Shown: positions 1 to 44,643 of the stretch, piece after piece
Layout of the letters: the number at the start of each line of letters is the position of its first letter
How positions within the stretch are numbered: the stretch's first letter is position 1
DNA from: Candidatus Hydrogenedentota bacterium
GTDB lineage: Bacteria > Hydrogenedentota > Hydrogenedentia > Hydrogenedentales > SLHB01
Length of the DNA stretch: 64,000 nt
Assembly (NCBI GenBank): GCA_045863335.1
Contig: BTVY01000008.1
Location: 1 to 64,000, forward strand
Reading direction: 5' to 3'
Made by a program: the position numbers and the translations under genes
The notes under the pieces: model-generated
Databases searched by the model: none
What the model was told of the DNA's origin: nothing
The model's input: only the letters and a program-made list of their open reading frames with translations

Positions 1-2
1 GA

Positions 3-86
3 CGCAGAATGTATTTCGAGCGGTACTGCAAGAACTGCACCCCTTCAAAGGGGGACTTTGAGCAAGACGTCACACAAGATCTTTGA
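3..86 (+). CDS. Probable 3' end of a CDS entering from outside the window (RRMYFERYCKNCTPSKGDFEQDVTQDL*)
   Basis: Frame is open from the window edge to TGA at 84-86, contains CxxC and converges on the next gene. Confidence 0.35.
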   Translation, partial: RRMYFERYCKNCTPSKGDFEQDVTQDL

Positions 87-131: not shown

Positions 132-1139
132 TTACCGTGAGGCGGGGCCGGGTTGCATGGCTTCGGGGGCGCGGAAGATCTTTCGTGCCGTATCCGTCGC
201 GGGAAACTCCACATTCGATTTCACGTACGAGACATGCCCGTCCATGTATCCCACGTTGATGCCGTCCCGGGTGTCCACAGGAGTTTCGAAGAAGATGGGG
301 ATCTCCGATTGGGCGCTCGCCGATCCGGCGGGATTGTTGATGTCGGTGATGAAGAATCGCTCAATACCTTCTCGCGGACGGTAAAGTATCCCCGCTTCGG
401 TTTCAATCGAATCGCCCAGGTCGGCGCGCGCCAATTTCTTTAGGGTCGAATCCAGCGCCGTCGCTTCCTCGTCATTCTTGACGACCCAGCCGGGGTACGC
501 GTAGCTCATCGCGGCGATCCGGGTCACTTCGCGCCAGTCGACTGGATCTTGCGCAACCAGCTCATTGAGCCGCTCCTGGAGTTCCCGCGCGTCCGGGCGG
601 CTGGGGTTCACGAGGACCGAGAGATCCGAGAGGTACTTGGGGTACACGCGTTCGATGTCGAACATCCAAAGCCCCTCGTATGGCGTAAGCGGGGGAAAGG
701 CCTCGCCGGGACTTTCATTCGCATACATCTTCATGACGATACCCAATTGCTTGAGGTTGTTCTGGCTCGATGCACGGCGTGAGGCTTCGCGGGACCGGGA
801 TAGCGCCGGCATCAGGATGGCCGCGACGATCAGCGCTACCGCGAGCATTACAGACGCCTGCACCCAAAAGGCTTGCGACCTCCGGCGTTGCGACAGTTCG
901 AGATCCCGCTCTTCACGAATCGTGGCCAGCGTGCGCGTGGCCAGGCCTGGTGGCGCTTCAGCCTCCGGCAACGCATCCAGAAGGGCCAACGCGTCCCGCT
1001 CGCGGACCAGATCTTCCTGCCAGGCGGGGTCGGCCGCAAGCATGGCTTCCACGTGGGCATGTTGCTCCTCGGACAAGGTACCGAGCAGATACCCGCGGAG
1101 CAGCTCGAACCGTTCGCTATGGGAATCTCGTTCCGTCAT
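132..1139 (-). CDS. Putative anti-sigma factor: N-terminal anti-sigma-like domain fused to TM helix and DUF1559/H-X9-DG pilin-like domain
   Basis: N-terminus LLRGYLLGTLSEEQHAHVEAML...APPGLATRTL; then ILMPALSRSREASRRASSQNNLKQLG and C-terminal GINVGYMDGHV; 4-bp overlap with the upstream ECF sigma gene. Confidence 0.8.
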   Translation of the reverse strand: MTERDSHSERFELLRGYLLGTLSEEQHAHVEAMLAADPAWQEDLVRERDALALLDALPEAEAPPGLATRTLATIREERDLELSQRRRSQAFWVQASVMLAVALIVAAILMPALSRSREASRRASSQNNLKQLGIVMKMYANESPGEAFPPLTPYEGLWMFDIERVYPKYLSDLSVLVNPSRPDARELQERLNELVAQDPVDWREVTRIAAMSYAYPGWVVKNDEEATALDSTLKKLARADLGDSIETEAGILYRPREGIERFFITDINNPAGSASAQSEIPIFFETPVDTRDGINVGYMDGHVSYVKSNVEFPATDTARKIFRAPEAMQPGPASR

Positions 1140-1747
1140 TCCACAAACTCTCGCAATTCATCCATGAGGAGGCGTACCGCCTTGTTCATGCGCGATTTCA
1201 CCGTGCCCACGGGAATGCCGAGGCACTCGCCAATCGCGTCATACGGCATGCCCTCGTGCCGGGCCATCAAGAACACCGCACGATGCCGCATGGGGAGACG
1301 TGCAATCGCCGCCTCGAGCCGTTCGCGCAACTCGGATTCACGCGCGCTTGCGTCGGCGCTGGCGTGTGCGTCGGGAATCCGTTCCGCCAGTGGAGGGCCG
1401 TCACTTTCTGCGCCGCCAAAGCGATCCAGCGATACGGCCAAGCGGCGACGCAGGTACCGCAGCCGATCGCAACTGCAGTTCGTGGCGATCCGGTACAACC
1501 ACGGCCTCAGGGGAGAAGACGGATCGTAGCGGTCCCGGGAGCGGTACAATCGCAGCATCGTTTCCTGAAACACGTCCTCCGCCTCGGCGGCGTTGCCGGT
1601 CATCCGCCGGAGATAAGTGAACAGTGGCGCTTCGTACCGGCGAACCAGCCGGCCAAACGCTTCCATGTCGCCATCACGCGCGGCGGCCATGAGGGTTTCA
1701 TCCGAGTCCCCATGGGGGCGCTCTTCTATTGGATACGCGCTATCCAT
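1136..1747 (-). CDS. ECF sigma-70 family RNA polymerase sigma factor
   Basis: Region 2 (AEDVFQET, PWLYRIATN) and region 4 (LPMRHRAVFLM, GIPVGTVKSRMNKA). Confidence 0.95.
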   Translation of the reverse strand: MDSAYPIEERPHGDSDETLMAAARDGDMEAFGRLVRRYEAPLFTYLRRMTGNAAEAEDVFQETMLRLYRSRDRYDPSSPLRPWLYRIATNCSCDRLRYLRRRLAVSLDRFGGAESDGPPLAERIPDAHASADASARESELRERLEAAIARLPMRHRAVFLMARHEGMPYDAIGECLGIPVGTVKSRMNKAVRLLMDELREFVE

Positions 1748-1756
1748 CGTTCCGGT

Positions 1757-2218
1757 TCATTTGGAATTACGCACGTGCTCATTGGGGAGTACGGCCAAGG
1801 TCACCGTCGCCCGCGCGATGAGTTTCTCCCTATCTCCAGTGCGGGAATACACATCCGATTGAACGACGATCAACCGCCGCCCGTTCCGAACGACTTCGGC
1901 GCGGCAGCGCAGTGCGTGGCCGGAACCCGGCCGGAGCAGGCTGATCGAATAGCCCACGCTCAATACAATCTCGTCCTCTGCAATTAAGGTCGTGCCCGCA
2001 GACCCGGCGGTGTGGTCCGCGAGGGTAGCCACGGCGCCACCGTGGACGACATCGTTCTGCTGCAAATGGTGGTCGCGCAAGGGCATGGTGGCTTCGCACC
2101 ATCCCGGACCCGCGCTGTGATACGTGATGCCCAGGTGGTGAACGAACTTCGCCTTCTGAAACGTGCTCTCAACGCGCTCCATATAGTCTGAGTCGCGTGG
2201 CTTGAATTCCTCACTCAT
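1757..2218 (-). CDS. PaaI family hotdog-fold thioesterase
   Basis: VHGGAVATLADHTAG motif; ATG at 2218 with upstream AAGGA. Confidence 0.9.
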   Translation of the reverse strand: MSEEFKPRDSDYMERVESTFQKAKFVHHLGITYHSAGPGWCEATMPLRDHHLQQNDVVHGGAVATLADHTAGSAGTTLIAEDEIVLSVGYSISLLRPGSGHALRCRAEVVRNGRRLIVVQSDVYSRTGDREKLIARATVTLAVLPNEHVRNSK

Positions 2219-2334
2219 ACCAAATCCTTCCTTCCGCAACGGCCAACCCTTGCGTACAATAGCGCGGTTTGGGCCTCGGTTTCACGTTTTGAGCTATAGC
2301 ATTGACGTATCACGGGAATCCCCCGTAGCATAGA

Positions 2335-11304: not shown

Positions 11305-11718
11305 TTAACTTTGCTTCTGGGGTTGCCGCAGCCGGACGAGTGCCCAGCCGGTGGCGGTCGCCAAACCCGCGAGCAGGGTGGTGGCGCTCAAGGCGATTAC
11401 GATTTCTCCCCAGTACTGGAACGCAAACACGACGAGATAATCGAAATACCCCATGGCGCCCGGGACTGCCTGTACGCCCCACCCCTGGTAAAACGCCAAC
11501 GCCGGAACCCCGACGATGGCCGCTCCCAGGATGGCAAAAACCGCCGCGGTTGCCATCATGCGGAAGCGGAATCCCTGTCGCTCGTTCTGCACCAGGGCCG
11601 TCACATGAAGCCGGTTCGACATCCGCAGGTGAAATCCCTGCGGCACGTTCCGCATGGGCTCGCTCCGGAGCGCTTCCTCAATCATACGGTCCATATCGTC
11701 CATCTCATTGAGGTCCAT
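11305..11718 (-). CDS. Putative membrane anti-sigma factor
   Basis: Overlaps the ECF gene; EPMRNVPQGFHLRMSNRL followed by TM helices. Confidence 0.7.
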   Translation of the reverse strand: MDLNEMDDMDRMIEEALRSEPMRNVPQGFHLRMSNRLHVTALVQNERQGFRFRMMATAAVFAILGAAIVGVPALAFYQGWGVQAVPGAMGYFDYLVVFAFQYWGEIVIALSATTLLAGLATATGWALVRLRQPQKQS

Positions 11719-12304
11719 TCGACTTGATCTCCTTCTCCACGATCTTCCGCAGTTGGTGACGCGCGCGGTGCATCCACGTCTTCAAGGTTCCCATCGGTAT
11801 ATTCAGACTCTCGGCGATTTCTTCGTAGGAAATCTCGTCGAGATAGTACATCGTGACGATTGTCGCATAGCGATCCGGTAACTTCGTAACGCAACGCCGT
11901 ATCAGTTCCGGCGTATCCGTCGTTTCCTCGGGTTCCGTGACGGCATCGCCGGTGTGGTCCGTCGTCAGCGGAACTTCGCCGCGCCGCTTGCGCCGGCTCA
12001 ATTCGGTAAGGCATACGCTCGACGTAACGCGATACAACCACGTCGAGAAACTACAATCCCCACGAAATCCGCTCAACAGGCGATAGGCCTTCAGGAAAGC
12101 CTCCTGGGCCATGTCTTCTGCCAGGGCCGTATCACGCATGAAGCGGTAGGCCAAGTTGTAGACGACACGTTCATGACGCCGCGCCAATTCGGAAAACGCC
12201 TCGATGTCGCCTGCTTTTGTCCGGTTGACGAGGGCCAGATCCGAGTCATCGACCATCTTGACCTTTCCCGTGTTTGGCCAAACAGCCACGTTCGGCGCCG
12301 TCAT
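11705..12304 (-). CDS. ECF sigma factor (SigW/RpoE-like)
   Basis: AEDMAQEAFLKAY, FSTWLYRV, SYEEIAESLNIPMGTLKTWMHRAR. Confidence 0.95.
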   Translation of the reverse strand: MTAPNVAVWPNTGKVKMVDDSDLALVNRTKAGDIEAFSELARRHERVVYNLAYRFMRDTALAEDMAQEAFLKAYRLLSGFRGDCSFSTWLYRVTSSVCLTELSRRKRRGEVPLTTDHTGDAVTEPEETTDTPELIRRCVTKLPDRYATIVTMYYLDEISYEEIAESLNIPMGTLKTWMHRARHQLRKIVEKEIKSNGPQ

Positions 12305-13224
12305 GAGCTACTCCTCGCAATCGAGATGTCCCCGTTGAGGGTTTCCATCGTGATCCTGGCGCGATTCTCACCGTTCCCGACCGTCCCATCAAAGGCTTTC
12401 CGCTGGAGGGTTCCAGAAACGGCGCCCTCTGGCAATTCGGTTCGCACGCTGCCCCGTTCCGTCCTGGCCTGGATCACCGCCGTGCAATCCAGCTCCATTT
12501 CCAGCGATACCCCGCCATTCTGGCTCGAAAGGGCGGCGCCATTCACAGAGGAACCCAAGACGCGCGCGATAATATTGCCGTTCGCCGTCATCGCCTCGAG
12601 ATGCCCGCCGGCCACGTCAGCATAAACATTGCCGTTGACCGTCTTGAGCTGGCCGCCGTCAGGCGCTTCCTGAACCGTGATACGGCCGTTCACGCTCTCG
12701 GCGACCACTGCGCCTTTTGGACCCCGGACATCGATATCGGTGTTTCGGCCTTTTACCGCCACCCGCCCGCAACCGGGTTCCACCCAAACGTTGCCATTGT
12801 TACTCTCAATCTCCACGTTCGTGCCGGCAGGCACCTGCACGTCGTAGACGACGAACAACTCGAAACCGTCGGGACGATTCGACGGTTCGGTCAAGATTCG
12901 AACCTGAGATTCCGAACTCATGATATCCACAAGACTCGCTACGTATTGCCTCAATTCGTCTTGAGACCCGTCCCCGCGGAGAAAAGCCCGGATTTCCGCG
13001 CTGCCTCGAATGGTGGGGGCAGAGTGGGTGGAAACACGCACGAGCCCGTCGGAATTCACCAGCCGGAAACTCTCCGACGCAGGATGACTAAACTGTTTTA
13101 TTTCATGCACATCGGGCCGCCCAACCATAGGTGGCAGCGAAGGCGCGACGATACGCACCATGAACCATACGACCAGAACGGTGATGGCCAGTGCGGTGAT
13201 GATGCTTCGGATGTGCGGCTTCAT
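12301..13224 (-). CDS. DUF4097 family beta-strand repeat (adhesin-like) membrane-anchored protein
   Basis: N-terminal TM; repeated (S/T)xNGxI/V units; first gene of the ECF operon. Confidence 0.85.
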   Translation of the reverse strand: MKPHIRSIITALAITVLVVWFMVRIVAPSLPPMVGRPDVHEIKQFSHPASESFRLVNSDGLVRVSTHSAPTIRGSAEIRAFLRGDGSQDELRQYVASLVDIMSSESQVRILTEPSNRPDGFELFVVYDVQVPAGTNVEIESNNGNVWVEPGCGRVAVKGRNTDIDVRGPKGAVVAESVNGRITVQEAPDGGQLKTVNGNVYADVAGGHLEAMTANGNIIARVLGSSVNGAALSSQNGGVSLEMELDCTAVIQARTERGSVRTELPEGAVSGTLQRKAFDGTVGNGENRARITMETLNGDISIARSSS

Positions 13225-14074: not shown

Positions 14075-16708
14075 ATGGACAGGGCGCACGCGAAGCTTCA
14101 GATTGCGGAACTCGGGGGGCTTCCGTCCAGCCCGCGAATTCTCCGGCGTATCTTGGAGCGCCACGATTCCGGCACCCAATTGACCGAGCTGATTTCCTGC
14201 GACCCCGTGTTGGCCAGCGAAATCCTGTCGGCAGCCTTCGCCCACAGATCCCTTCCGGCCCTCTCCATCGAGTCTGCTGCCTCCGCTTTGGGCCACGATA
14301 CGGTGCGACGAATTGCAACTGCATGCCTGAACGCCGCGCCCCCGGAATACGTTTACGAATCTTCGCTTGAGTCCATGCGCCGTGAATCGGTGATGACGGC
14401 CGCCGCCGCCGAGTGCGTCTCGAAACGCATCCATGGCGCGAACCCCGGCGAATTCTATCTGCTCGGACTCGTCCACAACATTGGGAAGTGGGTTCTCCAC
14501 GCGATCGATGATAACCAGTTTGCGGTTTGCCGGGGCGATGGCGGCGATAGCCCCGGCGCACTCGAGAAAGAATCATGTACGTTTGGTTTCCATCACGGCG
14601 AAGCGGGTAAGTGGTACGCCGAGTCCCGGCGGTTTCCACAGGCACTCATCGACGCGATCTGGCTCCACCACGTGGACCCTTCGGCGCTCTCCCCGTCTTG
14701 TTTTCCAGCGCGGTCGATCGCGGTCCTCGCGCTCGCGGCCGCCGTGGCGCGCGCGGCCAACACTGCCGAAAACGAAGCGGGAGCGAAGGCAACTGCTTCC
14801 CGGCTGCTTTCGTACCTGGGTCTGGACTCCGCCGGGTTCCCGGAACTTGTGGGTGAATGCGCCGCCGCCGTTGCCGAGCGCGACCGGATGCTGGAGTCCG
14901 AAGTTCAGGTGGAATCCGGGTCAATTCAAGTAGCAGACCAGGACCTGAACAAGGTCGGGACCGCCACCGAAATTGCGATCTTGGAACGTCGCGTCTCGCG
15001 CCTCGAAGTGCTCCAAGATGCGATCCTGATCAACCGAACCGGAATGCCCTTCCCGTCCGTGATTCGCGACTGCGCCACAACCATTCGCGACGGCTTAGGG
15101 GTTGCGCCAGGCATGTGCTTTGCCCCGGACACCGGGGAACGGGAGATTGTCGGCGCATCGTGGAAATCGTTGAACGATCAGGTCACTGGATTCCGTGCGA
15201 GTCTCCAAGACTCGGAAAGCGGCGGCCCTGCCGAACCGGCGCCCGTGCTGCGCGCCATTCGAGAACTTGGCGTCGGCAAGATCGAAGGCGCCTGGCAGTC
15301 TGGAACCGGCGAACCGCGCCGTCAACGAGGCGGCCTGCTCGTCATGCCGCTATGGCATGACGGCTGCAGTCTTGGCCAGATCGTCGTGGATACGAGCACT
15401 ACGGAGTTTGGATCGACCGATCGCGATATTGCCGATCTCTCCATGTACGCGCGCGCGCTTGGCGCCATGCTCGCGTCCTATCATTCCCACGAGTTGACCT
15501 CAACGCGCTGTGAAGCACTTTCGCGAGGACTTGCCGCGATCGAATCTGGCGACGACGCCGGTGAAGACCCGTCTGCGCCGGACGAAGCCGCACATCGAAA
15601 TCACCTCGGCCGTTTCGCCGCGGGCATCGCCCGGTCACTTGACGGCCCCCTCGGCCTGATCTCCAGTCAAGCGCAACGAACACTCGCCAAAGCTAAGGAC
15701 ATCGAGACGCACCGCGTGCTGGATACCATCGTGCGAGAGACACGCCGTCTCAACCGGTTTCGTTCCGACCTCGCCGCACTGGCGCCTCAATCCAAGCCGA
15801 AGTTGGAACCGGCCTTGATAAACTTCCGCCTCCAGCAGTACGTCGCGACCATGCGATCCCGCCTGGAACGCCGCGGGATTCGCGTCGAGGAACGATTCGC
15901 GGAGAACCTGCACCGGGTCATGTTGGATCCTCGGCGAATGGATCACGTGTTTCAGAACCTTCTTTCCCTCGCCGAAGAGGCCATGGACGAGACGGGAGGA
16001 CACCTGACCATCCAAACGGCTCCGTCGCCGGACCGGCAAGCCGTCCTCGTGCAGTTCACGCACGACGGCCGCGGCATTTCGGCAAGTCCTGCGGGCGATG
16101 TCTTCGAACCGTTTAACGAACAGACGGCGCCAGACATCGGCGTGGCGCTTGCCGTGTGCAGGACGATCGTTGCGGAACACGGCGGACGCATCACACTGGA
16201 TCGGGGGCCCAAGGGTGGAGACTCGTTTACGATCGCGTTGCCGGCCGTAATGGCGGACCAAAGCACTGCTGGCCACGATACGGCGTTGCCGGAATCGCCG
16301 GCCTTGCAAACGGTCCTCATCGTGGATGACGATGAGGCGGTACGCACGATCTTGACTCAAGCGCTCCACATGCGAGGATTTAAGGTCCTAACCGCTGTCG
16401 ATGGCGTCGAGGCATTGAAAGCGGTCGAGGACCACTCGTTGGACCTCATCATCCTCGATCTGTTGATGCCCAACCGCGACGGACTGACCGTGCTTCGCGA
16501 TCTACGCGAGATGCCCAGTGCCCCTCCCATCATTTTCATGACGGGGAATGCATCACCGCAGGTCCAGGAGGAGGCCCTCGCGCTGGGAGCGGATCGATTC
16601 CTGCTCAAACCATTCGAACTGCGACAGCTTCTCGATGTGCTGGACGCGGTCTTATCGGTGCGCCAAAACCGACTGGCGCCCTTTCGCACCACCGTGAGGC
16701 CGACGTAG
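14075..16708 (+). CDS. HDOD-GAF-like-degenerate histidine kinase-receiver hybrid protein
   Basis: LPSSP...DPVLA...GLVHNIGK...HH (HDOD); HATPase remnants; VDDD...LDLLMP...LKPF receiver. Confidence 0.85.
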   Translation: MDRAHAKLQIAELGGLPSSPRILRRILERHDSGTQLTELISCDPVLASEILSAAFAHRSLPALSIESAASALGHDTVRRIATACLNAAPPEYVYESSLESMRRESVMTAAAAECVSKRIHGANPGEFYLLGLVHNIGKWVLHAIDDNQFAVCRGDGGDSPGALEKESCTFGFHHGEAGKWYAESRRFPQALIDAIWLHHVDPSALSPSCFPARSIAVLALAAAVARAANTAENEAGAKATASRLLSYLGLDSAGFPELVGECAAAVAERDRMLESEVQVESGSIQVADQDLNKVGTATEIAILERRVSRLEVLQDAILINRTGMPFPSVIRDCATTIRDGLGVAPGMCFAPDTGEREIVGASWKSLNDQVTGFRASLQDSESGGPAEPAPVLRAIRELGVGKIEGAWQSGTGEPRRQRGGLLVMPLWHDGCSLGQIVVDTSTTEFGSTDRDIADLSMYARALGAMLASYHSHELTSTRCEALSRGLAAIESGDDAGEDPSAPDEAAHRNHLGRFAAGIARSLDGPLGLISSQAQRTLAKAKDIETHRVLDTIVRETRRLNRFRSDLAALAPQSKPKLEPALINFRLQQYVATMRSRLERRGIRVEERFAENLHRVMLDPRRMDHVFQNLLSLAEEAMDETGGHLTIQTAPSPDRQAVLVQFTHDGRGISASPAGDVFEPFNEQTAPDIGVALAVCRTIVAEHGGRITLDRGPKGGDSFTIALPAVMADQSTAGHDTALPESPALQTVLIVDDDEAVRTILTQALHMRGFKVLTAVDGVEALKAVEDHSLDLIILDLLMPNRDGLTVLRDLREMPSAPPIIFMTGNASPQVQEEALALGADRFLLKPFELRQLLDVLDAVLSVRQNRLAPFRTTVRPT

Positions 16709-38005: not shown

Positions 38006-39544
38006 TCACCGCACACGCAGTATCCGCTTCCCTTCCCAAGTCTGCCCGAACATGTCCGTCGTCCGCACGGTCACCGTGTGCGTCCCCACGGGCGGATTCG
38101 CCGGTAACGTGCCCTTCCACATGTGATTCGTTTCGCTGGGGTAGTCCATCTTCCATCCGAAGACTTCCTCGTTCAGGAACTCGTTTTGCTCGTGCATGCG
38201 CAGGCATTCGGGATCGATGGCGCGGGTTTGCTCCAGCGCATTCCAGTCGCCGTCCTTGCCGAACTGCATCTCCACCGTGGACCGCTCGGACCCCGCGAAC
38301 ACGTTGACGAGGATCTCCGTCTCCGCGGCATTCGCCTGTTCCACGTCGTCGGGCAGGTAGATGTTCATCTGGTAATCGGCCGGACGCCGCGCGGCCTTGA
38401 ACACGACGCGGTACTGATTCCCATCGAAGTGGACGTATGAATACCCGTTCGGCGCGCCGTCGTTCATGGTGGCGTGGGGGATACCCACCTCGTCAAAGGT
38501 CCCGCACCACCAGGAGCCACACACGGTCGCGTGGACGAGATGATGGTGCGGCTCCGGACCCGGCCAGCCCATGTCTTCGCCGAGCAGGAAATTGAACTGC
38601 TCGTGCGCGTGCGCGGAGATGGTGAATGTATGCGGGTGCTCCGCGAGAATCGCGAACATCTCGTCGCGCCCATGGCAGCGCACGATGGGGATGTGCATCG
38701 TCATGACGATGAGCTTGTCCTTGGGAACGGTGGCGAGATAACTTTTCACGAAGGCCAGTTGGTCCTCCGTAAACCGCCCCTCGTACTTGCCGTCCGGTTT
38801 GAAGTACACATCGTCCATGACGAGGTAGCAGACCTTCCCGTATTCGAAGGCGTAGCTGCCGGGACCGTAGAATCGTTCGAAGGTCTCGTCGGAATGGTCG
38901 TCGCCGCCGGACCCGCGGTTGTTGTCGTGGTTCCCGAAGGTGTTGTACCAGGGCACGCCGATCTGCGCGATGCTCCCGTTGATCTCGGCGAAGAGGTTCA
39001 CGTCGTCCGCGACGATATCGCCGAGCGAGATCCCGAATTTCGCATCGGTCCCGATGCATTCCTCCACCACGTCGTGGGTGATGAAGTTCACCTCGCGCAA
39101 TCCCCGCGCCTGAGGATCGCCAAAAAGCAGGATCGAATACTGGTCCGGCTCGTCCCGCTTGTACAGCGGAAAATCAATGGAGGAGGGGAGAAGGCCCGTC
39201 GGCGCAACGCCTTTCGCCTCCAGTTCCGGCGATCCGGCCGGTTTGTGGATGTAGAAGAACTGGGGGATCTGGTCCTCGTTGACCGGCGTCATCCAGTCCT
39301 CCGGCTTCACCACGAACAGGATCGTGTCGTCGTCGACCGGCAGGGTCCAACGCCCCTCGGCGTCCGTCTGAACCACGTCCCGCCCGTTCGACACGCATAC
39401 CCCTGGAATGCCTGTTTCTCCCGCATCGCGCACGGCGTTCCGGTTCGCATCGTCGTACACCACACCCGTCGCACTGTCCTGCGCAGTTGCCGCGAGCGCG
39501 AAACCAACGGCAAGCAATGTCCCCCATATCGCGAGAATCCGCAT
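38006..39544 (-). CDS. Secreted calcineurin-like metallophosphoesterase (MetallophosN/C)
   Basis: GDPQ, LGDIV, GNHD, HIP, AHAH, CGSWW. Confidence 0.92.
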   Translation of the reverse strand: MRILAIWGTLLAVGFALAATAQDSATGVVYDDANRNAVRDAGETGIPGVCVSNGRDVVQTDAEGRWTLPVDDDTILFVVKPEDWMTPVNEDQIPQFFYIHKPAGSPELEAKGVAPTGLLPSSIDFPLYKRDEPDQYSILLFGDPQARGLREVNFITHDVVEECIGTDAKFGISLGDIVADDVNLFAEINGSIAQIGVPWYNTFGNHDNNRGSGGDDHSDETFERFYGPGSYAFEYGKVCYLVMDDVYFKPDGKYEGRFTEDQLAFVKSYLATVPKDKLIVMTMHIPIVRCHGRDEMFAILAEHPHTFTISAHAHEQFNFLLGEDMGWPGPEPHHHLVHATVCGSWWCGTFDEVGIPHATMNDGAPNGYSYVHFDGNQYRVVFKAARRPADYQMNIYLPDDVEQANAAETEILVNVFAGSERSTVEMQFGKDGDWNALEQTRAIDPECLRMHEQNEFLNEEVFGWKMDYPSETNHMWKGTLPANPPVGTHTVTVRTTDMFGQTWEGKRILRVR

Positions 39545-39764
39545 AGCAAACCTCCCTGGATCGGTTGGTCATCTGTCAAGATTTTCAGTCAGTTTAACTC
39601 ATAGCGTCGTAAGCGCTTCTGCGCCCAGCTCCGGACTTGGCGATTGTATCAAGCCCGGCAATTGTGCTCTACTTAGTACGGTACCGTGCGTTTCAAGGCT
39701 GAAGATGGTGACGGATGGCTCTCTGGGACAAGGGGCCTTTCCGTCGATGGCAGGGAGAGGGTCA

Positions 39765-41135
39765 ATGCCCACACAGCGCAAGAAACGGGTCGGAGCCATG
39801 CTGGTTGACGAGGGTCTCATCCGTGAGGATCACCTGATCCAGGCCCTCAATCGGCAGAAGAAGGAAGGCGGCAAGTTCATCCAGAACCTCATCGCCCTGG
39901 AATGCGTCAAAGCCGAGGACGTCACCGATTTCCTGGCGCGCCGGCACCACCATCCGCACATCGAGATCGGACAGTTCGGCGTCCCGGAGGAAGTGCTCTC
40001 ACTCGTTCCTCGCGATTTCGCCATCCGCCACGAGGTCTTTCCCCTCGACCATGCGGGGTCCACGCTCACGCTCGGCATGGTCTGTCCGCTGGATACGGCG
40101 ACCATCGACGAATTGGAGGCACACTCCGGCCTGCACGTCATGCCGGTCCTGTGTTCGGGCGCGGATCTCAAGGCGAGCATCGAACGCTGCTACGGCACGG
40201 AACCAGCGAACGGGCAGGAATTGGCGACGCTGGAACCGGAGGCCATCGGAAGCACCTTGCGTCTCGGCGGCATTCCTACCGTCATCAAACAACTGAGCGC
40301 CTTACCCGCGCTGCCCGTCACGGTCCGGAAAGTCCGCGAGGCCATCGACGACCCGGAAGTCTCCACGCACGACGTCGGCACGATCATCGCCACCGACCCT
40401 ACTCTGGCCGCCAAAGTGCTCAGCATCGCCAATTCGCCGGCCTTTGGTTTCCCCAACCAGGTGACCTCCATCCACCTCGCGGTATCGCTGCTTGGTATGG
40501 AGGAAACGTATTCGGTGGTGCTGTCCGCTTCTGTGGTCGACCTTATGACGGGTTCAAAGGCCTTTGACTATCGGACCTTCTGGGTTCGGTCCATGCTCTG
40601 CGGCACCTTGTGCAAGATTGTGGCGCAACGGGCAGGTTTCGGGACGAAGCCCGGGATCTTCACGGCAGGACTCCTTCTCGACATCGGCCGCCTCGCCTTA
40701 ACAGAAGTTGCCCCGCAACGCTACGCCACCATCGACCGCAGTCTGCGCGGATCGGATCTCGTCGAAGCCGAAGAACAAGTCCTCGGCATCGGCCATCCCG
40801 AAGCGGGGTATCTCCTCGCCTCCGCATGGGACCTGCCCGACGAACTGGGGGAGACTATCCGCCTCCACCACATGCCCGAATACGCAACGCTGAACCGTGA
40901 GGCCGCTGCCATCGCCGCCATCGGAAACACGATGGCCTACCTCGCGCCCGAAGAGTACGAGGACCCCAGCGCCCTTTCTGTACCCTGCGCACGTTACCTG
41001 ACCGATCTGCAGATCGCCGATGAGGCCATCATCGAGATGTTCGACGAGATGAAGCGCATCCTCAAGAGCGAGTTCCTCCTCCAACGCCGCTGGGACGGTG
41101 ACGCGCGTCAAACCGCGGGCAAGGATGCTTCCTAG
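39765..41135 (+). CDS. MshEN/T2SSE_N-HDOD fusion protein
   Basis: RVGAMLVDEGLI...LIQALNRQ; LPALP...DPTLAAKVLSIANSPAFG...WDLP...HH. Confidence 0.88.
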   Translation: MPTQRKKRVGAMLVDEGLIREDHLIQALNRQKKEGGKFIQNLIALECVKAEDVTDFLARRHHHPHIEIGQFGVPEEVLSLVPRDFAIRHEVFPLDHAGSTLTLGMVCPLDTATIDELEAHSGLHVMPVLCSGADLKASIERCYGTEPANGQELATLEPEAIGSTLRLGGIPTVIKQLSALPALPVTVRKVREAIDDPEVSTHDVGTIIATDPTLAAKVLSIANSPAFGFPNQVTSIHLAVSLLGMEETYSVVLSASVVDLMTGSKAFDYRTFWVRSMLCGTLCKIVAQRAGFGTKPGIFTAGLLLDIGRLALTEVAPQRYATIDRSLRGSDLVEAEEQVLGIGHPEAGYLLASAWDLPDELGETIRLHHMPEYATLNREAAAIAAIGNTMAYLAPEEYEDPSALSVPCARYLTDLQIADEAIIEMFDEMKRILKSEFLLQRRWDGDARQTAGKDAS

Positions 41136-42010: not shown

Positions 42011-43081
42011 CTACTTTCCGTGGTAGTAGTCGATACTTACCCGACGATTCAGTTTGCGGTTTGCTTCACTATCGTTGGGCACCGCCGGTTGGGTGTCTCC
42101 ATAAGCTTTCGTGGTGATGCGGCTGCCGTCGATACCGTGCTCGATCAGATACGACTTCGCCGCGTCCGCGCGTTGCTGGCTTAGCGCCATATTGAATTCA
42201 GGCGATCCGAGGTCACAGGTGTGACCATTCACAACAACGTAACCAGTGGGATCCTTCTTCAGCATGTCTACGTATCGATCCAGTTCTACCTTACCTTCCG
42301 GCGTGATTACGGCTTTGTCCTTGTAGAACAGGAACTGCGGAAACCAGTCCCAATGACGCACTACTCCAGCGTGTCGTTTCGCCTCTACGGATTTAAAAAA
42401 AATCTCCCGCACCATCGCCGCCATGCCCTCAGGCGAACTCACCTCAGCCGCCTGCCAGGCTTGGCCGCAACTCGTCGACGTCGCCATCTTCTTGAGCAGC
42501 CGTCGGCCGGATTTGCTGTACCCGACGTTCACGGTATAGATGCAGAGCGGCCCGATGTGGGGGTAGGCTGCCGCTTCACAGGCCTCGATCACCCGGTCGT
42601 GAGGATGGGTGCGTCCGTCGGAAAACACGATCAACGCGGCGTTGCCGTCGTGGGTTTCAAACTCGCTCCGGGTCGCCAGCACCGCTTCGTTCAGAGGCGT
42701 CAGACCACCGAGGTAAGTCAGGTTCGCCGCGCAGTCGCCGAGAACACCCAAGTTCCCCTCACCCAGTGACACCTGCGTCCAGTCCGCTTGAGAATATCCG
42801 GCGAACGAATAGAACCCCATCTGGTAATCCATATCCGGCATCGCCGCGACGAAGGCCTCCAACAACGCCTTCTCCTGTTGGAAGATCTCATTCTCGTCCG
42901 TCGACCCCGTCACATCGGCCAGGATCAGCACGTGGTCGACCTTCAGCACTTCGTCGGGCTTGGGCACAACGCGGGTCATCTCGAACGGTTGCACCTGCGT
43001 CGTCACCGTCTGGCACCCGGCCAGAACAAGCGCGGTCACAGCACTGCAGGTTGCACACACAACGCGTTGAACGGAGTTCAT
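42011..43081 (-). CDS. vWA plus OmpA-C lipoprotein (paralog 1)
   Basis: LAGC, DVTGS, FSDG, GHTC...LSQQRA...NRRV. Confidence 0.9.
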   Translation of the reverse strand: MNSVQRVVCATCSAVTALVLAGCQTVTTQVQPFEMTRVVPKPDEVLKVDHVLILADVTGSTDENEIFQQEKALLEAFVAAMPDMDYQMGFYSFAGYSQADWTQVSLGEGNLGVLGDCAANLTYLGGLTPLNEAVLATRSEFETHDGNAALIVFSDGRTHPHDRVIEACEAAAYPHIGPLCIYTVNVGYSKSGRRLLKKMATSTSCGQAWQAAEVSSPEGMAAMVREIFFKSVEAKRHAGVVRHWDWFPQFLFYKDKAVITPEGKVELDRYVDMLKKDPTGYVVVNGHTCDLGSPEFNMALSQQRADAAKSYLIEHGIDGSRITTKAYGDTQPAVPNDSEANRKLNRRVSIDYYHGK

Positions 43082-43317
43082 TTCGCAACCTCCAAAAGTT
43101 GTTTCGACCCTGTTCCCACTGCCACAAAACCGGTGCAAACATCCTCGCATAGTCACACAGCGCGCGACAGCCTCCGGCTCTCCCCGGCCAGAGAAGCGCG
43201 AATGCATAATCGCGGCCGTGGGGATTCCCTTTGACTCTCCCCACGGCCGAGGAATTGTTGAAGTTCACGTGTGGTCACACGCAACCTGTATTGATATGCC
43301 CGTCCAACGTTCTTCGA

Positions 43318-44370
43318 TCAATCGACGAACTTATACCGTATTACCGCGCGGCGGTTCAGTTTCCGGTTGGGTTCCCCGGAGTTTGGAACCGCCGGACGGG
43401 ATTCACCGTAGGCTTCTGTCGTGATGAGACCGCCATCGACACCCTGCTCAATCATGTACGACCGCACGGCATCGGCACGACGCTGGCTCAAATCCATGTT
43501 ATACGCTGCGGCTCCAAGATCGCAGGTGTGCCCTTCGATAACGACATAATCGAGGTTTTGTTTTCGGAACTCCGCAACGGCCCGATCCACCGCGGCTTTG
43601 CCTTCCGGTTTCAGCACGGCCTTGTCCAGGTCGAACAACACCTCGCTCGGCAGCACCATGGTGCGCTCTTCAGGCTCCGGACCGGGGGCGAAGAATATCT
43701 CCCGCACCATCGCCTCCATACCTTCGGGCGTGCTCACTTCGGAAGCCTGCCAGGCATGGCCGCAACCCGTCACTGTTGCCATCTTCTCGAGCAGCGCCTT
43801 ACCGGACTTGCTGTAGCCCACATTCACCGTGTAAATGCACAGCTCGCCCATGTGCCCGTACGCCACTTCCTCGCACGCCTTCAACACGCGCTCGTGCGGA
43901 TGCGTCCGGCCGTCGGAGAACACCAGCAACGCGGCGTGCCCGTCCCGTCCTTCAAACTCGCTCCCCGTAACACGAACGCCCTCATGCAACGGGGTCGTTC
44001 CGCCGAGGTATCGCAGGCCGGCTGCCGCCCCGCCCAGGTCCTCCAGGGTGCCCGTCTGCAGCGGCACATACATCCAGTCCTCCTGGGAGCCGCCCGCGAA
44101 AGACCGGAAGCCCATCTGGTAGTTCAGGTCCGGCATCGCCGCGACAAAGGCTTTAAGCAGACTCTTCTCCTGGCGAAATACATTGCGTTCACTGGTCGAC
44201 CCGGTGACATCCGCCAGGATCATGATGTGGTCAACCTTAAGGACCTCGCCTGGATGCGGCGCTACCCTCGACATCTCAAAGGTTCGGACACGGACGGTCT
44301 GGCAACCGGACATAACCATTGCGGCCAGCGCGCAACCTACGGTACAAAATGCGAGACGTGAGTAGATCAT
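43318..44370 (-). CDS. vWA plus OmpA-C lipoprotein (paralog 2)
   Basis: MSGC, DVTGS, FSDG, GHTC...LSQRRA...NRRA. Confidence 0.9.
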   Translation of the reverse strand: MIYSRLAFCTVGCALAAMVMSGCQTVRVRTFEMSRVAPHPGEVLKVDHIMILADVTGSTSERNVFRQEKSLLKAFVAAMPDLNYQMGFRSFAGGSQEDWMYVPLQTGTLEDLGGAAAGLRYLGGTTPLHEGVRVTGSEFEGRDGHAALLVFSDGRTHPHERVLKACEEVAYGHMGELCIYTVNVGYSKSGKALLEKMATVTGCGHAWQASEVSTPEGMEAMVREIFFAPGPEPEERTMVLPSEVLFDLDKAVLKPEGKAAVDRAVAEFRKQNLDYVVIEGHTCDLGAAAYNMDLSQRRADAVRSYMIEQGVDGGLITTEAYGESRPAVPNSGEPNRKLNRRAVIRYKFVD

Positions 44371-44643
44371 GGCTCCACCTCCAGCAGTTTTTCTGAGGCC
44401 CCTGTCCCTGCTTGCCTTCGACTTGTGGGTGTTTCCTACTCCATGATAACACATAAAACGGGATTTCTGACGAGCCGAGGAGTGGGCCAGATGGGCAATG
44501 CTGCCCCGGTACACCAATCGGACTCGGCACACCGCTCATCCCCAGGCACCGTGACGGACGAAGGAAGAGTCACCTGGGTTGTCCTCTGTAGGGTATTCCG
44601 CTATTCTCGGTTTCGCAGGTTGTCAACGAAGGAATCATCCGCA

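Follow-up and report, generated by a model that had tools for sequence, protein, structure and literature searches.

A DUF1559-type, pilin-like domain as the putative sensor of an ECF sigma factor/anti-sigma factor switch in Candidatus Hydrogenedentota

Membrane-bound anti-sigma factors that control extracytoplasmic function (ECF) sigma factors, such as RsiW for SigW, RskA for SigK, RslA for SigL and MucA for AlgU, carry an N-terminal helical anti-sigma domain followed by one transmembrane (TM) helix, and their genes are coupled to those of the sigma factors. Here we describe a locus of this type at the beginning of a 64,000-nucleotide stretch of Candidatus Hydrogenedentota DNA (assembly GCA_045863335.1, contig BTVY01000008.1, positions 1 to 64,000 of the forward strand), referred to as the window. 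It consists of an ECF sigma gene and, directly downstream, a gene for a putative anti-sigma factor. The pair shares with the four systems named above the domain order, the gene coupling and the predicted contacts of helix 1 with sigma4 and of helix 4 with sigma2. It differs from them in that the ectodomain of the window protein belongs to the DUF1559/pilin family, and in that the HxxxCxxC motif is missing from the window copy.

Other described systems resemble parts of this arrangement. The closest conceptual parallel is provided by the RsgI/SigI polysaccharide sensors of Clostridium thermocellum, which follow the same logic of a membrane anti-sigma factor with an outer module akin to the regulated proteins. 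RsgI sensor modules are shared with the enzymes that SigI regulates. However, SigI is not an ECF sigma factor, RsgI has a different N-terminal domain and undergoes autoproteolysis, and nothing in the window system points to carbohydrate binding. PilS-PilA and related kinases likewise couple a membrane signalling protein to pilin biology, but PilS is a kinase that reads the conserved alpha1N of pilin, whereas in the window protein the pilin-derived helix is part of the sensor itself and is poorly conserved. The relatives of the ectodomain are the prepilin-type DUF1559 (PF07596, 'SBP_bac_10') and H-X9-DG proteins of Planctomycetota and Hydrogenedentota. The window protein has their alpha1C signature, their whole globular domain (about 40% identity) and their N-in/C-out orientation. 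Unlike them, it has an 88-aa anti-sigma domain in place of the short leader, has lost Gly-1, Glu5, the position-14 Gly, both Cys and the His, and is linked to a sigma gene. We know of no established function for the DUF1559 family. Each Planctomycetales genome is reported to contain 41 or more genes with a prepilin motif, the majority of which encode a DUF1559 domain (PMC8567305).

The sigma gene (1136..1747, minus strand) encodes 203 aa as its longest open reading frame (ORF), and the anti-sigma gene (132..1139, minus strand, stop codon 132-134, by ORF call) encodes 335 aa. A first-pass annotation, made by a model from the letters of the DNA, had noted that the two genes overlap by 4 bp, and this is the case: the ATGA at the junction combines the sigma stop codon TGA with the anti-sigma ATG. 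The sigma factor matches Sigma70_r2 (PF04542, 3.9e-20), Sigma70_r4_2 (PF08281, 7.7e-13) and NCBIfam TIGR02937 sigma70-ECF (104.6 bits, cut-off 42.9). With sigma2 and sigma4 as its only domains in about 200 aa, it is an ECF (group 4) sigma-70 factor. SigW and RpoE types are among the NCBIfam models closest to it, none of which reaches its cut-off, and we assign the protein to no ECF group, since no named ECF equivalog reaches its own cut-off.

Residues 1-88 of the anti-sigma protein (876..1139, minus strand) appear, from a profile match and from structural models, to form a cytoplasmic class-I-type anti-sigma domain of four helices lacking a Zn motif. Residues 13-123 match NCBIfam NF052375 'anti-sigma factor' with E 8.5e-14 and 52.1 bits, the curated cut-off being 100. 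AlphaFold2 modelling of the full-length protein with alignment A1 (pLDDT, predicted local distance difference test, 91.7; pTM, predicted template modelling score, 0.71) gives helices at 4-19, 24-36 and 38-55, a single long helix at 66-142 and a globular alpha/beta domain that ends near residue 321. When the whole model was compared with the Protein Data Bank (PDB) by Foldseek, relatives were found for the anti-sigma domain alone, namely RsiW (5wuq_D, probability 0.95), RslA (4nqw_B), RskA (3hug_D) and MucA (6in7_A), with probabilities of 0.69-0.95 and E about 1. A phmmer search of PDB sequences returned RskA (E 0.19) and the N-terminal helix of geopilin (E 0.38) as its best matches and no others. 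The Zn-binding HxxxCxxC of the zinc-binding anti-sigma (ZAS) type is absent from the window protein, which contains no Cys anywhere and has no match to zf-HC2 (PF13490) at E up to 1. The orthologue in locus L004, in contrast, matches zf-HC2 with 24.3 bits (cut-off 22.2), and the 5'-cut copy L007a reaches 19.3 bits. Because L004 matches zf-HC2, the family belongs to the ZAS-type class I anti-sigma lineage, of which the window copy has lost the Cys ligands. The identity of the anti-sigma domain is supported, yet under curated thresholds.

A co-fold of the sigma factor with residues 1-88 predicts that this domain binds its cognate sigma factor, as had been proposed in the first-pass annotation. 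The interface score ipSAE is 0.80, 0.81 and 0.80, compared with 0.09 for the best of three controls, with contact agreement of at least 96% and a partner pLDDT of at least 88. In a benchmark, this mark was met by 58 of 80 solved complexes and by 2 of 110 mismatched pairs; the comparison is a rough one, as our co-folds used their own four-row alignments. In the model, residues 15-21 contact sigma residues 184-191 and residues 66-78 contact sigma residues 35 and 60-64, the sigma surface involved lying at 28-69 and 137-203. PMC7406223 gives it as a rule for class I anti-sigma domains that helix 1 binds sigma4 while helix 4 binds sigma2, and the predicted contacts agree with this rule.

The remainder of the protein is aligned with pilins from its membrane helix onwards. 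Hydropathy reveals one hydrophobic stretch only (residues about 90-113), and residues 89-111 (807..875, minus strand) form the single TM helix, which aligns with pilin alpha1N. Residues 112-142 (714..806, minus strand) make up the alpha1C helix with the DUF1559 signature (SRSREASRRASSQNNLKQ...KMYANE), and residues 143-335 (135..713, minus strand) the putative periplasmic globular DUF1559-like domain, with an invariant REGIERFFITDINNP block and DGH. The two signature strings quoted in the first-pass annotation lie at residues 109-133 and 293-303, and the succession of anti-sigma-like domain, TM helix and DUF1559 signature described there is borne out. The Pfam DUF1559 profile is matched above its cut-off (E 2.1e-6, 28.4 bits, cut-off 23.3) over residues 116-141, which correspond to profile positions 3-28 of 268. 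TIGR04294 H-X9-DG stays under its cut-off of 19 (E 0.041, 13.7 bits, residues 293-307). Nor is the window protein an H-X9-DG protein by definition, in that DG(H) is present and invariant while Thr290 occupies the place of the expected His, X9 back from Asp300-Gly301; the His-bearing 'NH' segment of prepilin paralogues aligns to a gap in the window protein.

Prepilins are recognized by a short leader ending in Gly, followed by F/M-T-L-I-E with Glu5. The window protein has no N_methyl match in Pfam at E up to 1 and is not a prepilin by definition. In alignments A1 and A4, which contain the window protein and 60 of 77 well-formed prepilin paralogues, its TM helix can nevertheless be read against alpha1N column for column: Gln89 stands for Gly-1, Gln94 for Glu5, Leu103 for a conserved Gly and Pro111 for a conserved Pro, four positions that we take to be those that define prepilins. 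The ectodomain (about 225 aa) is 36-45% identical to the 60 prepilin-type paralogues of Candidatus Hydrogenedentota and reaches phmmer E-values down to about 1e-40; by these scores, the relationship is far beyond chance. Invariant positions across the alignment include Pro111, Arg115, Arg117, Glu118, the REGIERFFITDINN block (Gly258 to Asn269) and Asp300-Gly301-His302. The prepilin rows have a Cys before NNLKQ and another in CPSD, each with a conservation of 90% or more; in the window protein, Ser125 and Asn178, respectively, take their places. Missing from all six fused or related rows are both Cys and a ten-residue Cys-bearing insertion whose conservation among the prepilins is again 90% or more. 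The first-pass annotation had correctly called the missing cleavage site, the Cys-to-Ser change and the His-to-Thr change, and its description of the gene holds in all details.

Conservation among the four full-length orthologues is distributed unevenly. Mean pairwise identity is 0.42 in the anti-sigma domain, 0.26 in the TM helix, 0.57 in alpha1C and 0.53 in residues 241-312. The TM/alpha1N segment is thus the least conserved region, with only Pro111 invariant among its 23 positions; it has Gln, Glu (in L002), Ala and Ala at position +5 and never Gly at position -1. In the 60 prepilin rows, alpha1N is nearly invariant. A model of the ectodomain alone (pLDDT 92.4, pTM 0.88) consists of a long alpha1 helix and C-terminal strands; in a Foldseek search with it, no pilin or other PDB chain reached an E of 0.001, the best match having E 1.6 and a probability of 0.03, and structure therefore gave no lead to a function. 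Over residues 88-319, the Atlas model of the anti-sigma protein aligns with a DUF1559+N_methyl cluster at a template modelling score of 0.64. Judged from these alignments, the sensor domain is a descendant of the expanded pilin-like family of Hydrogenedentota, and the cytoplasmic prepilin leader has in effect been swapped for an anti-sigma domain, with the membrane topology unchanged. A tblastn search of the 64-kb window with the ectodomain found no further DUF1559 paralogue.

A scan of genomes matched 599 stretches, 517 of which encode relatives, and the best 80 of these 517 (79 loci, numbered L001 onwards) were analysed. L001, on a Candidatus Hydrogenedentota metagenome-assembled genome (MAG) contig, matches the window along 1125 nt with 99.9% identity, which places the window in Hydrogenedentota. 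Full-length fused orthologues are present in L002, L003 and L004, with anti-sigma identities of 58, 43 and 36-37% and identities of 71, 44 and 48% for the accompanying sigma factors. A phmmer search with the sigma factor found five ORFs in the loci. Three of them lie directly 5' of the fused genes of L002, L003 and L004 (E 2e-92, 3.3e-51 and 1.6e-51), and the remaining two, in L044 and L008, are unrelated sigma factors. The expectation that the fusion always stands next to an ECF gene agrees with what we see: in all four fused genes with readable upstream DNA (window, L002, L003 and L004), the gene is ATGA-coupled to the orthologous ECF sigma gene. L001, L006 and L007a end at contig edges, so that the upstream sigma region is out of reach there.

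With the ectodomain as query, phmmer returned 106 ORFs over the 79 loci, 86 with a G-FTLIE-type prepilin motif (by a pattern of our own) and 20 without. The latter comprise three ORFs of a large protein, two lacking an N-terminus, one canonical gene cut by a contig end and 14 real non-prepilin forms: the L001 copy; the fused genes of L002, L003 and L004; the 5'-cut fused genes of L006 and L007 (L007a); L007b; the TM-anchored L003c, L006c and L073c; and two each in L005 and L010. Across this range of architectures, the DUF1559-like ectodomain serves as a portable module. A maximum-likelihood tree of 89 ectodomains, unrooted and made by a quick search (L005b was omitted as too gappy and L073c was not included), places the six fused rows and L007b on one side of a branch with a Shimodaira-Hasegawa-like approximate likelihood ratio (SH-aLRT) support of 99 and all 77 prepilin rows on the other. 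The other non-prepilin forms attach beside this branch, and the nearest branches are TM-anchored or otherwise non-prepilin members. This topology fits a single origin of the fusion.

Several observations on individual loci are recorded here. The match between the window and L001 ends at window position 40, blastn leaving window positions 1-39 unaligned, and L001 runs on for 3.9 kb past the match end with a convergent PhoPQ_related gene that is also found in L002. L007 encodes, at 2-994, a zf-HC2-type fused anti-sigma with an HxxxCxxC domain, its 5' end cut and a run of N inside, and, at 939-1829, the tandem sister L007b with a short cytoplasmic tail and a TM helix instead of the anti-sigma domain. 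In both genes of L005 (3455-4711 and 4737-5627), the ectodomain is fused to a zinc-ribbon-like CPNC...CGGC start; the copy that was scanned adds DUF4190 TM helices. L010 (1-2181 and 2192-4648) has an 818-aa copy composed of CarboxypepD_reg repeats and AhpC/TSA with no TM helix before the domain, next to a 726-aa neighbour of similar appearance; the domain scan covered the 818-aa copy only. A 461-aa 'sigma' ORF in L008, considered as a further fused system, was rejected as an artefact that joins a sigma ORF with a PheS ORF, convergent with a canonical prepilin gene. MAGs titled Nitrospiraceae, Nitrospirales and Bathyarchaeia (L003, L007-L009, L022, L036 and others) contribute paralogues that intermingle in the tree with Hydrogenedentota ones; these labels look wrong, or the bins mixed.

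A promoter-like TGAACC-N16-CGTA (1734..1759, minus strand) is found where the sigma ORF begins, in the same place in all four sigma loci (window, minus strand, 1759; L002, +3378; L003, +3309; L004, +3357). In the window, its -35 part lies over the stop codon of the upstream thioesterase gene and its spacer over the annotated sigma ATG (region 1727-1747, minus strand). The motif is 40-46 nt 5' of the codon for Met20, which is invariant across the four sigma orthologues. The true sigma start may be this Met20 codon instead of the longest-ORF ATG. A conserved CGGAYGAR just 5' of it could be either codons or a ribosome-binding site. When spacers of 15-17 nt are considered, TGAACC-N15-CGTA is also found before the gene of a protein of about 770 aa, in all four of the loci that have this gene (L003, +4931; L004, +8233, 72 nt to the ATG; L006, +852, 78 nt; L073, +2206, 75 nt). 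Both strands of the 553,680 bp of loci contain 11 matches to the motif, compared with a shuffle mean of 3.75, and 7 of the 11 are the sigma and big-protein sites. The pattern is similar to that of SigW-type promoters. Further matches in the window (20017, 36443 and 51634, the last of them inside a GH32 gene) lie in or beside genes without an evident link to the locus and were taken as chance, the shuffle mean of the looser pattern being 1.08.

The protein of about 770 aa has a signal peptide and is encoded at 4937-7276 in L003, 930-3230 in L006, from 8305 in L004 and 2281-4582 in L073. No Pfam family was found in the L003 and L006 copies and no named Atlas neighbour for the L006 copy. A 41-residue stretch of this protein shares 59% of its residues with the REGIERFFITDINNP block, at an hhalign probability of 98.7. 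In L003, L006 and L073, its gene is followed on the 3' side by one for a TM-anchored non-prepilin DUF1559 paralogue, in which the Cys are retained. L073 comes from the same MAG (HYD1) as L001, the big-protein operon being on a separate contig there. We infer from the shared motif a candidate regulon made up of the sigma factor's own gene and the pair of the 770-aa protein and the TM-anchored DUF1559 paralogue. The first-pass annotation had asked whether DUF1559 or pilin genes belong to the regulon. This idea stands in part, through the TM-anchored DUF1559 paralogue; its pilin half does not, since even a looser version of the motif occurs in none of the 300-nt upstream regions of the 77 canonical prepilin DUF1559 genes.

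Altogether, we regard a conventional ECF sigma/class I anti-sigma switch with an unconventional DUF1559-type sensor as the probable explanation of the locus. The sigma factor would be held at the membrane by the anti-sigma protein, with helix 1 predicted on sigma4 and helix 4 on sigma2. The ectodomain would be a former pilin that has no peptidase site, Glu5 or disulfide Cys and is joined to a poorly conserved TM helix. It would now serve as a periplasmic binding module, whose conserved alpha1C and REGIERFFITDINNP/DGH surfaces may recognize the same partner or ligand as the free paralogues. Because the TM helix is the least conserved part and no pilus machinery genes were seen among the neighbouring ORFs that were scanned, we suggest that the periplasmic surfaces do the sensing rather than intramembrane pilin contacts. 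A cue would inactivate the anti-sigma protein, most likely through the regulated proteolysis that other single-pass class I anti-sigma factors undergo, and the freed sigma factor would transcribe its own gene and the operon of the 770-aa protein and the TM-anchored DUF1559 paralogue from TGAACC-N15/16-CGTA.

A number of points weigh against this explanation. The NF052375 score is under the curated cut-off, and the Foldseek E for the anti-sigma domain is about 1. The co-folded pair is of a textbook type, so the high score may come from likeness to solved complexes; because like complexes have already been solved, the co-fold shows likeness and not binding by this particular copy. Calling the ectodomain a binding module is an assumption, because the ectodomain has no solved structural relative. 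The tree was obtained by a quick search. The regulon is proposed from a short motif at four loci, whose spacers differ between the sigma (N16) and the big-protein (N15) sites. The big-protein operon lies outside the window, and the flanks of L001 and L002, 4-5 kb long, do not contain it. The motif also overlaps the annotated sigma start, and a transcript from it leaves only Met20, or Met16 in L003, as a start. The codons before Met20/Met16 (D-E-x-L) look conserved as codons. Because the motif leaves only Met16 in L003 while D-E-x-L looks coding, either the motif or the start-codon call would be wrong.

The first-pass annotation had proposed that the pilin mimic may sense pseudopilus assembly or a ligand. 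In its general form, the assembly half of this idea supposes that an uncleavable mimic, either within the pilin pool of the inner membrane or docked via alpha1 to the assembly platform, reports pool size or assembly state to the sigma factor. The column-for-column alignment of the TM helix with alpha1N of the prepilin paralogues, the retention of Pro111 at the pilin Pro22 position and the Glu kept at +5 in L002 speak for it, and membrane sensors that read pilins do exist, among them PilS-PilA, FimS with minor pilins and PleC-PilA (PMC6058289, PMC5979040 and PMC7196804). However, the very helix that should make such contacts is the one that has drifted most, to 26% identity, while alpha1N is held nearly constant in the prepilin rows, and the variable +5 residue and the constant lack of Gly at -1 extend through the four full-length orthologues. 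Nor were prepilin peptidase, secretin, GspE/F, PilMNO or other pilus or type II secretion genes seen in the Pfam scan of the window or beside the five other copies, where some of the flanking ORFs were scanned; the sole pilus-related match in the window is an MshEN+HDOD protein 38 kb away. With none of the 77 prepilin genes carrying the motif as well, we hold assembly sensing to be very unlikely. A generic envelope-stress switch, in which the ectodomain is a folded plug with no specific ligand whose unfolding or clipping triggers proteolysis of the anti-sigma protein, and in which disulfide loss creates a labile reporter of folding or redox state, is unlikely too, though to a lesser degree. 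It would account for the loss of both Cys and of the Cys-bearing insertion in all six fused or related rows, and it is in keeping with the SigW and RpoE types among the nearest (below-cut-off) sigma models and with the resemblance of the motif to SigW-type promoters. Yet the fused clade preserves the invariance that REGIERFFITDINNP, DGH and alpha1C show in the free paralogues, and these surfaces count against a plug because a mere plug should drift more freely there. The candidate regulon, moreover, is a specific secreted-protein/DUF1559 operon with no recognizable envelope-repair genes.

That the gene is a decayed or accidental fusion with no regulatory role is scarcely credible. Decay would account for the missing Zn motif of the window copy and for the shortness of its match to Pfam DUF1559; but full-length frames are open in four genomes at 36-58% identity with the ATGA coupling kept, the fold is predicted with high confidence and the upstream motif is conserved. 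A more elaborate proposal starts from the putative regulon: the anti-sigma sensor might be a decoy paralogue of the sigma-induced TM-anchored DUF1559 protein, with both binding the co-induced 770-aa protein, which has the 41-residue REGIERFFITDINNP module as well, so that titration of this partner would set sigma activity. We consider this decidedly unlikely as it stands; if true, it would represent a product-sensing feedback loop built from pilin-derived parts and supply the DUF1559 family with a first partner. A comparison over residues 111-172, covering L073, L003, L006 and L007, shows each anti-sigma protein to be closest, among four TM-anchored paralogues, to that of its own genome in all four cases (0.68, 0.58, 0.68 and 0.65). 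The differences are narrow, for the window a canonical row has an equal 0.68, and local indels are shared in L006. This likeness could be gene conversion or co-evolution, and nothing is built upon it here.

For the preferred explanation of an ordinary switch with an unusual sensor, the mechanism of switching is not what is new: the novelty lies in the type of sensor within the ECF/anti-sigma repertoire. We found no description of a DUF1559- or pilin-derived anti-sigma factor in the literature, although the supplementary tables of surveys of ECF sigma factors and of class I anti-sigma domains (ASDI) may list such architectures. The main text of the ECF re-classification paper contains none of the words pilin, prepilin, N_methyl, pilus and Hydrogenedentes. 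A sensor, a promoter motif and a small candidate regulon together offer an experimental route into the uncharacterised, heavily expanded DUF1559 family, even though the host is uncultured.

Upstream of the sigma ORF, at a distance of 9 nt, lies a gene for a hotdog-fold thioesterase (1757..2239, minus strand; PF03061, 4.3e-12; TIGR00369, 5.3e-20), which may be co-transcribed with the sigma gene. This linkage is seen by synteny in the window and L002 only. A weaker promoter-like TGAAAC-N16-CTAT (2259..2284, minus strand) upstream of the thioesterase gene is likewise common to the window and its close relative L002 only.

Elsewhere in the window, a second, conventional ECF sigma factor is encoded at 11705-12304 (minus strand; r2 1.2e-17, r4_2 1.5e-16). 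On its 3' side, a 137-aa ORF (11305-11718, minus strand), hydrophobic in its C-terminal half, probably encodes its anti-sigma factor; on the 5' side of the sigma gene there is a 307-aa ORF (12301-13224, minus strand) that matches no Pfam family at E up to 1e-4. Two HDOD signalling proteins are encoded on the plus strand at 14075-16708 and 39408-41135, one a hybrid histidine kinase/receiver and the other with an MshEN domain and no ATPase domain. Tandem paralogous OmpA-family proteins of about 400 aa are encoded at 42011-43207 and 43318-44532 (minus strand).

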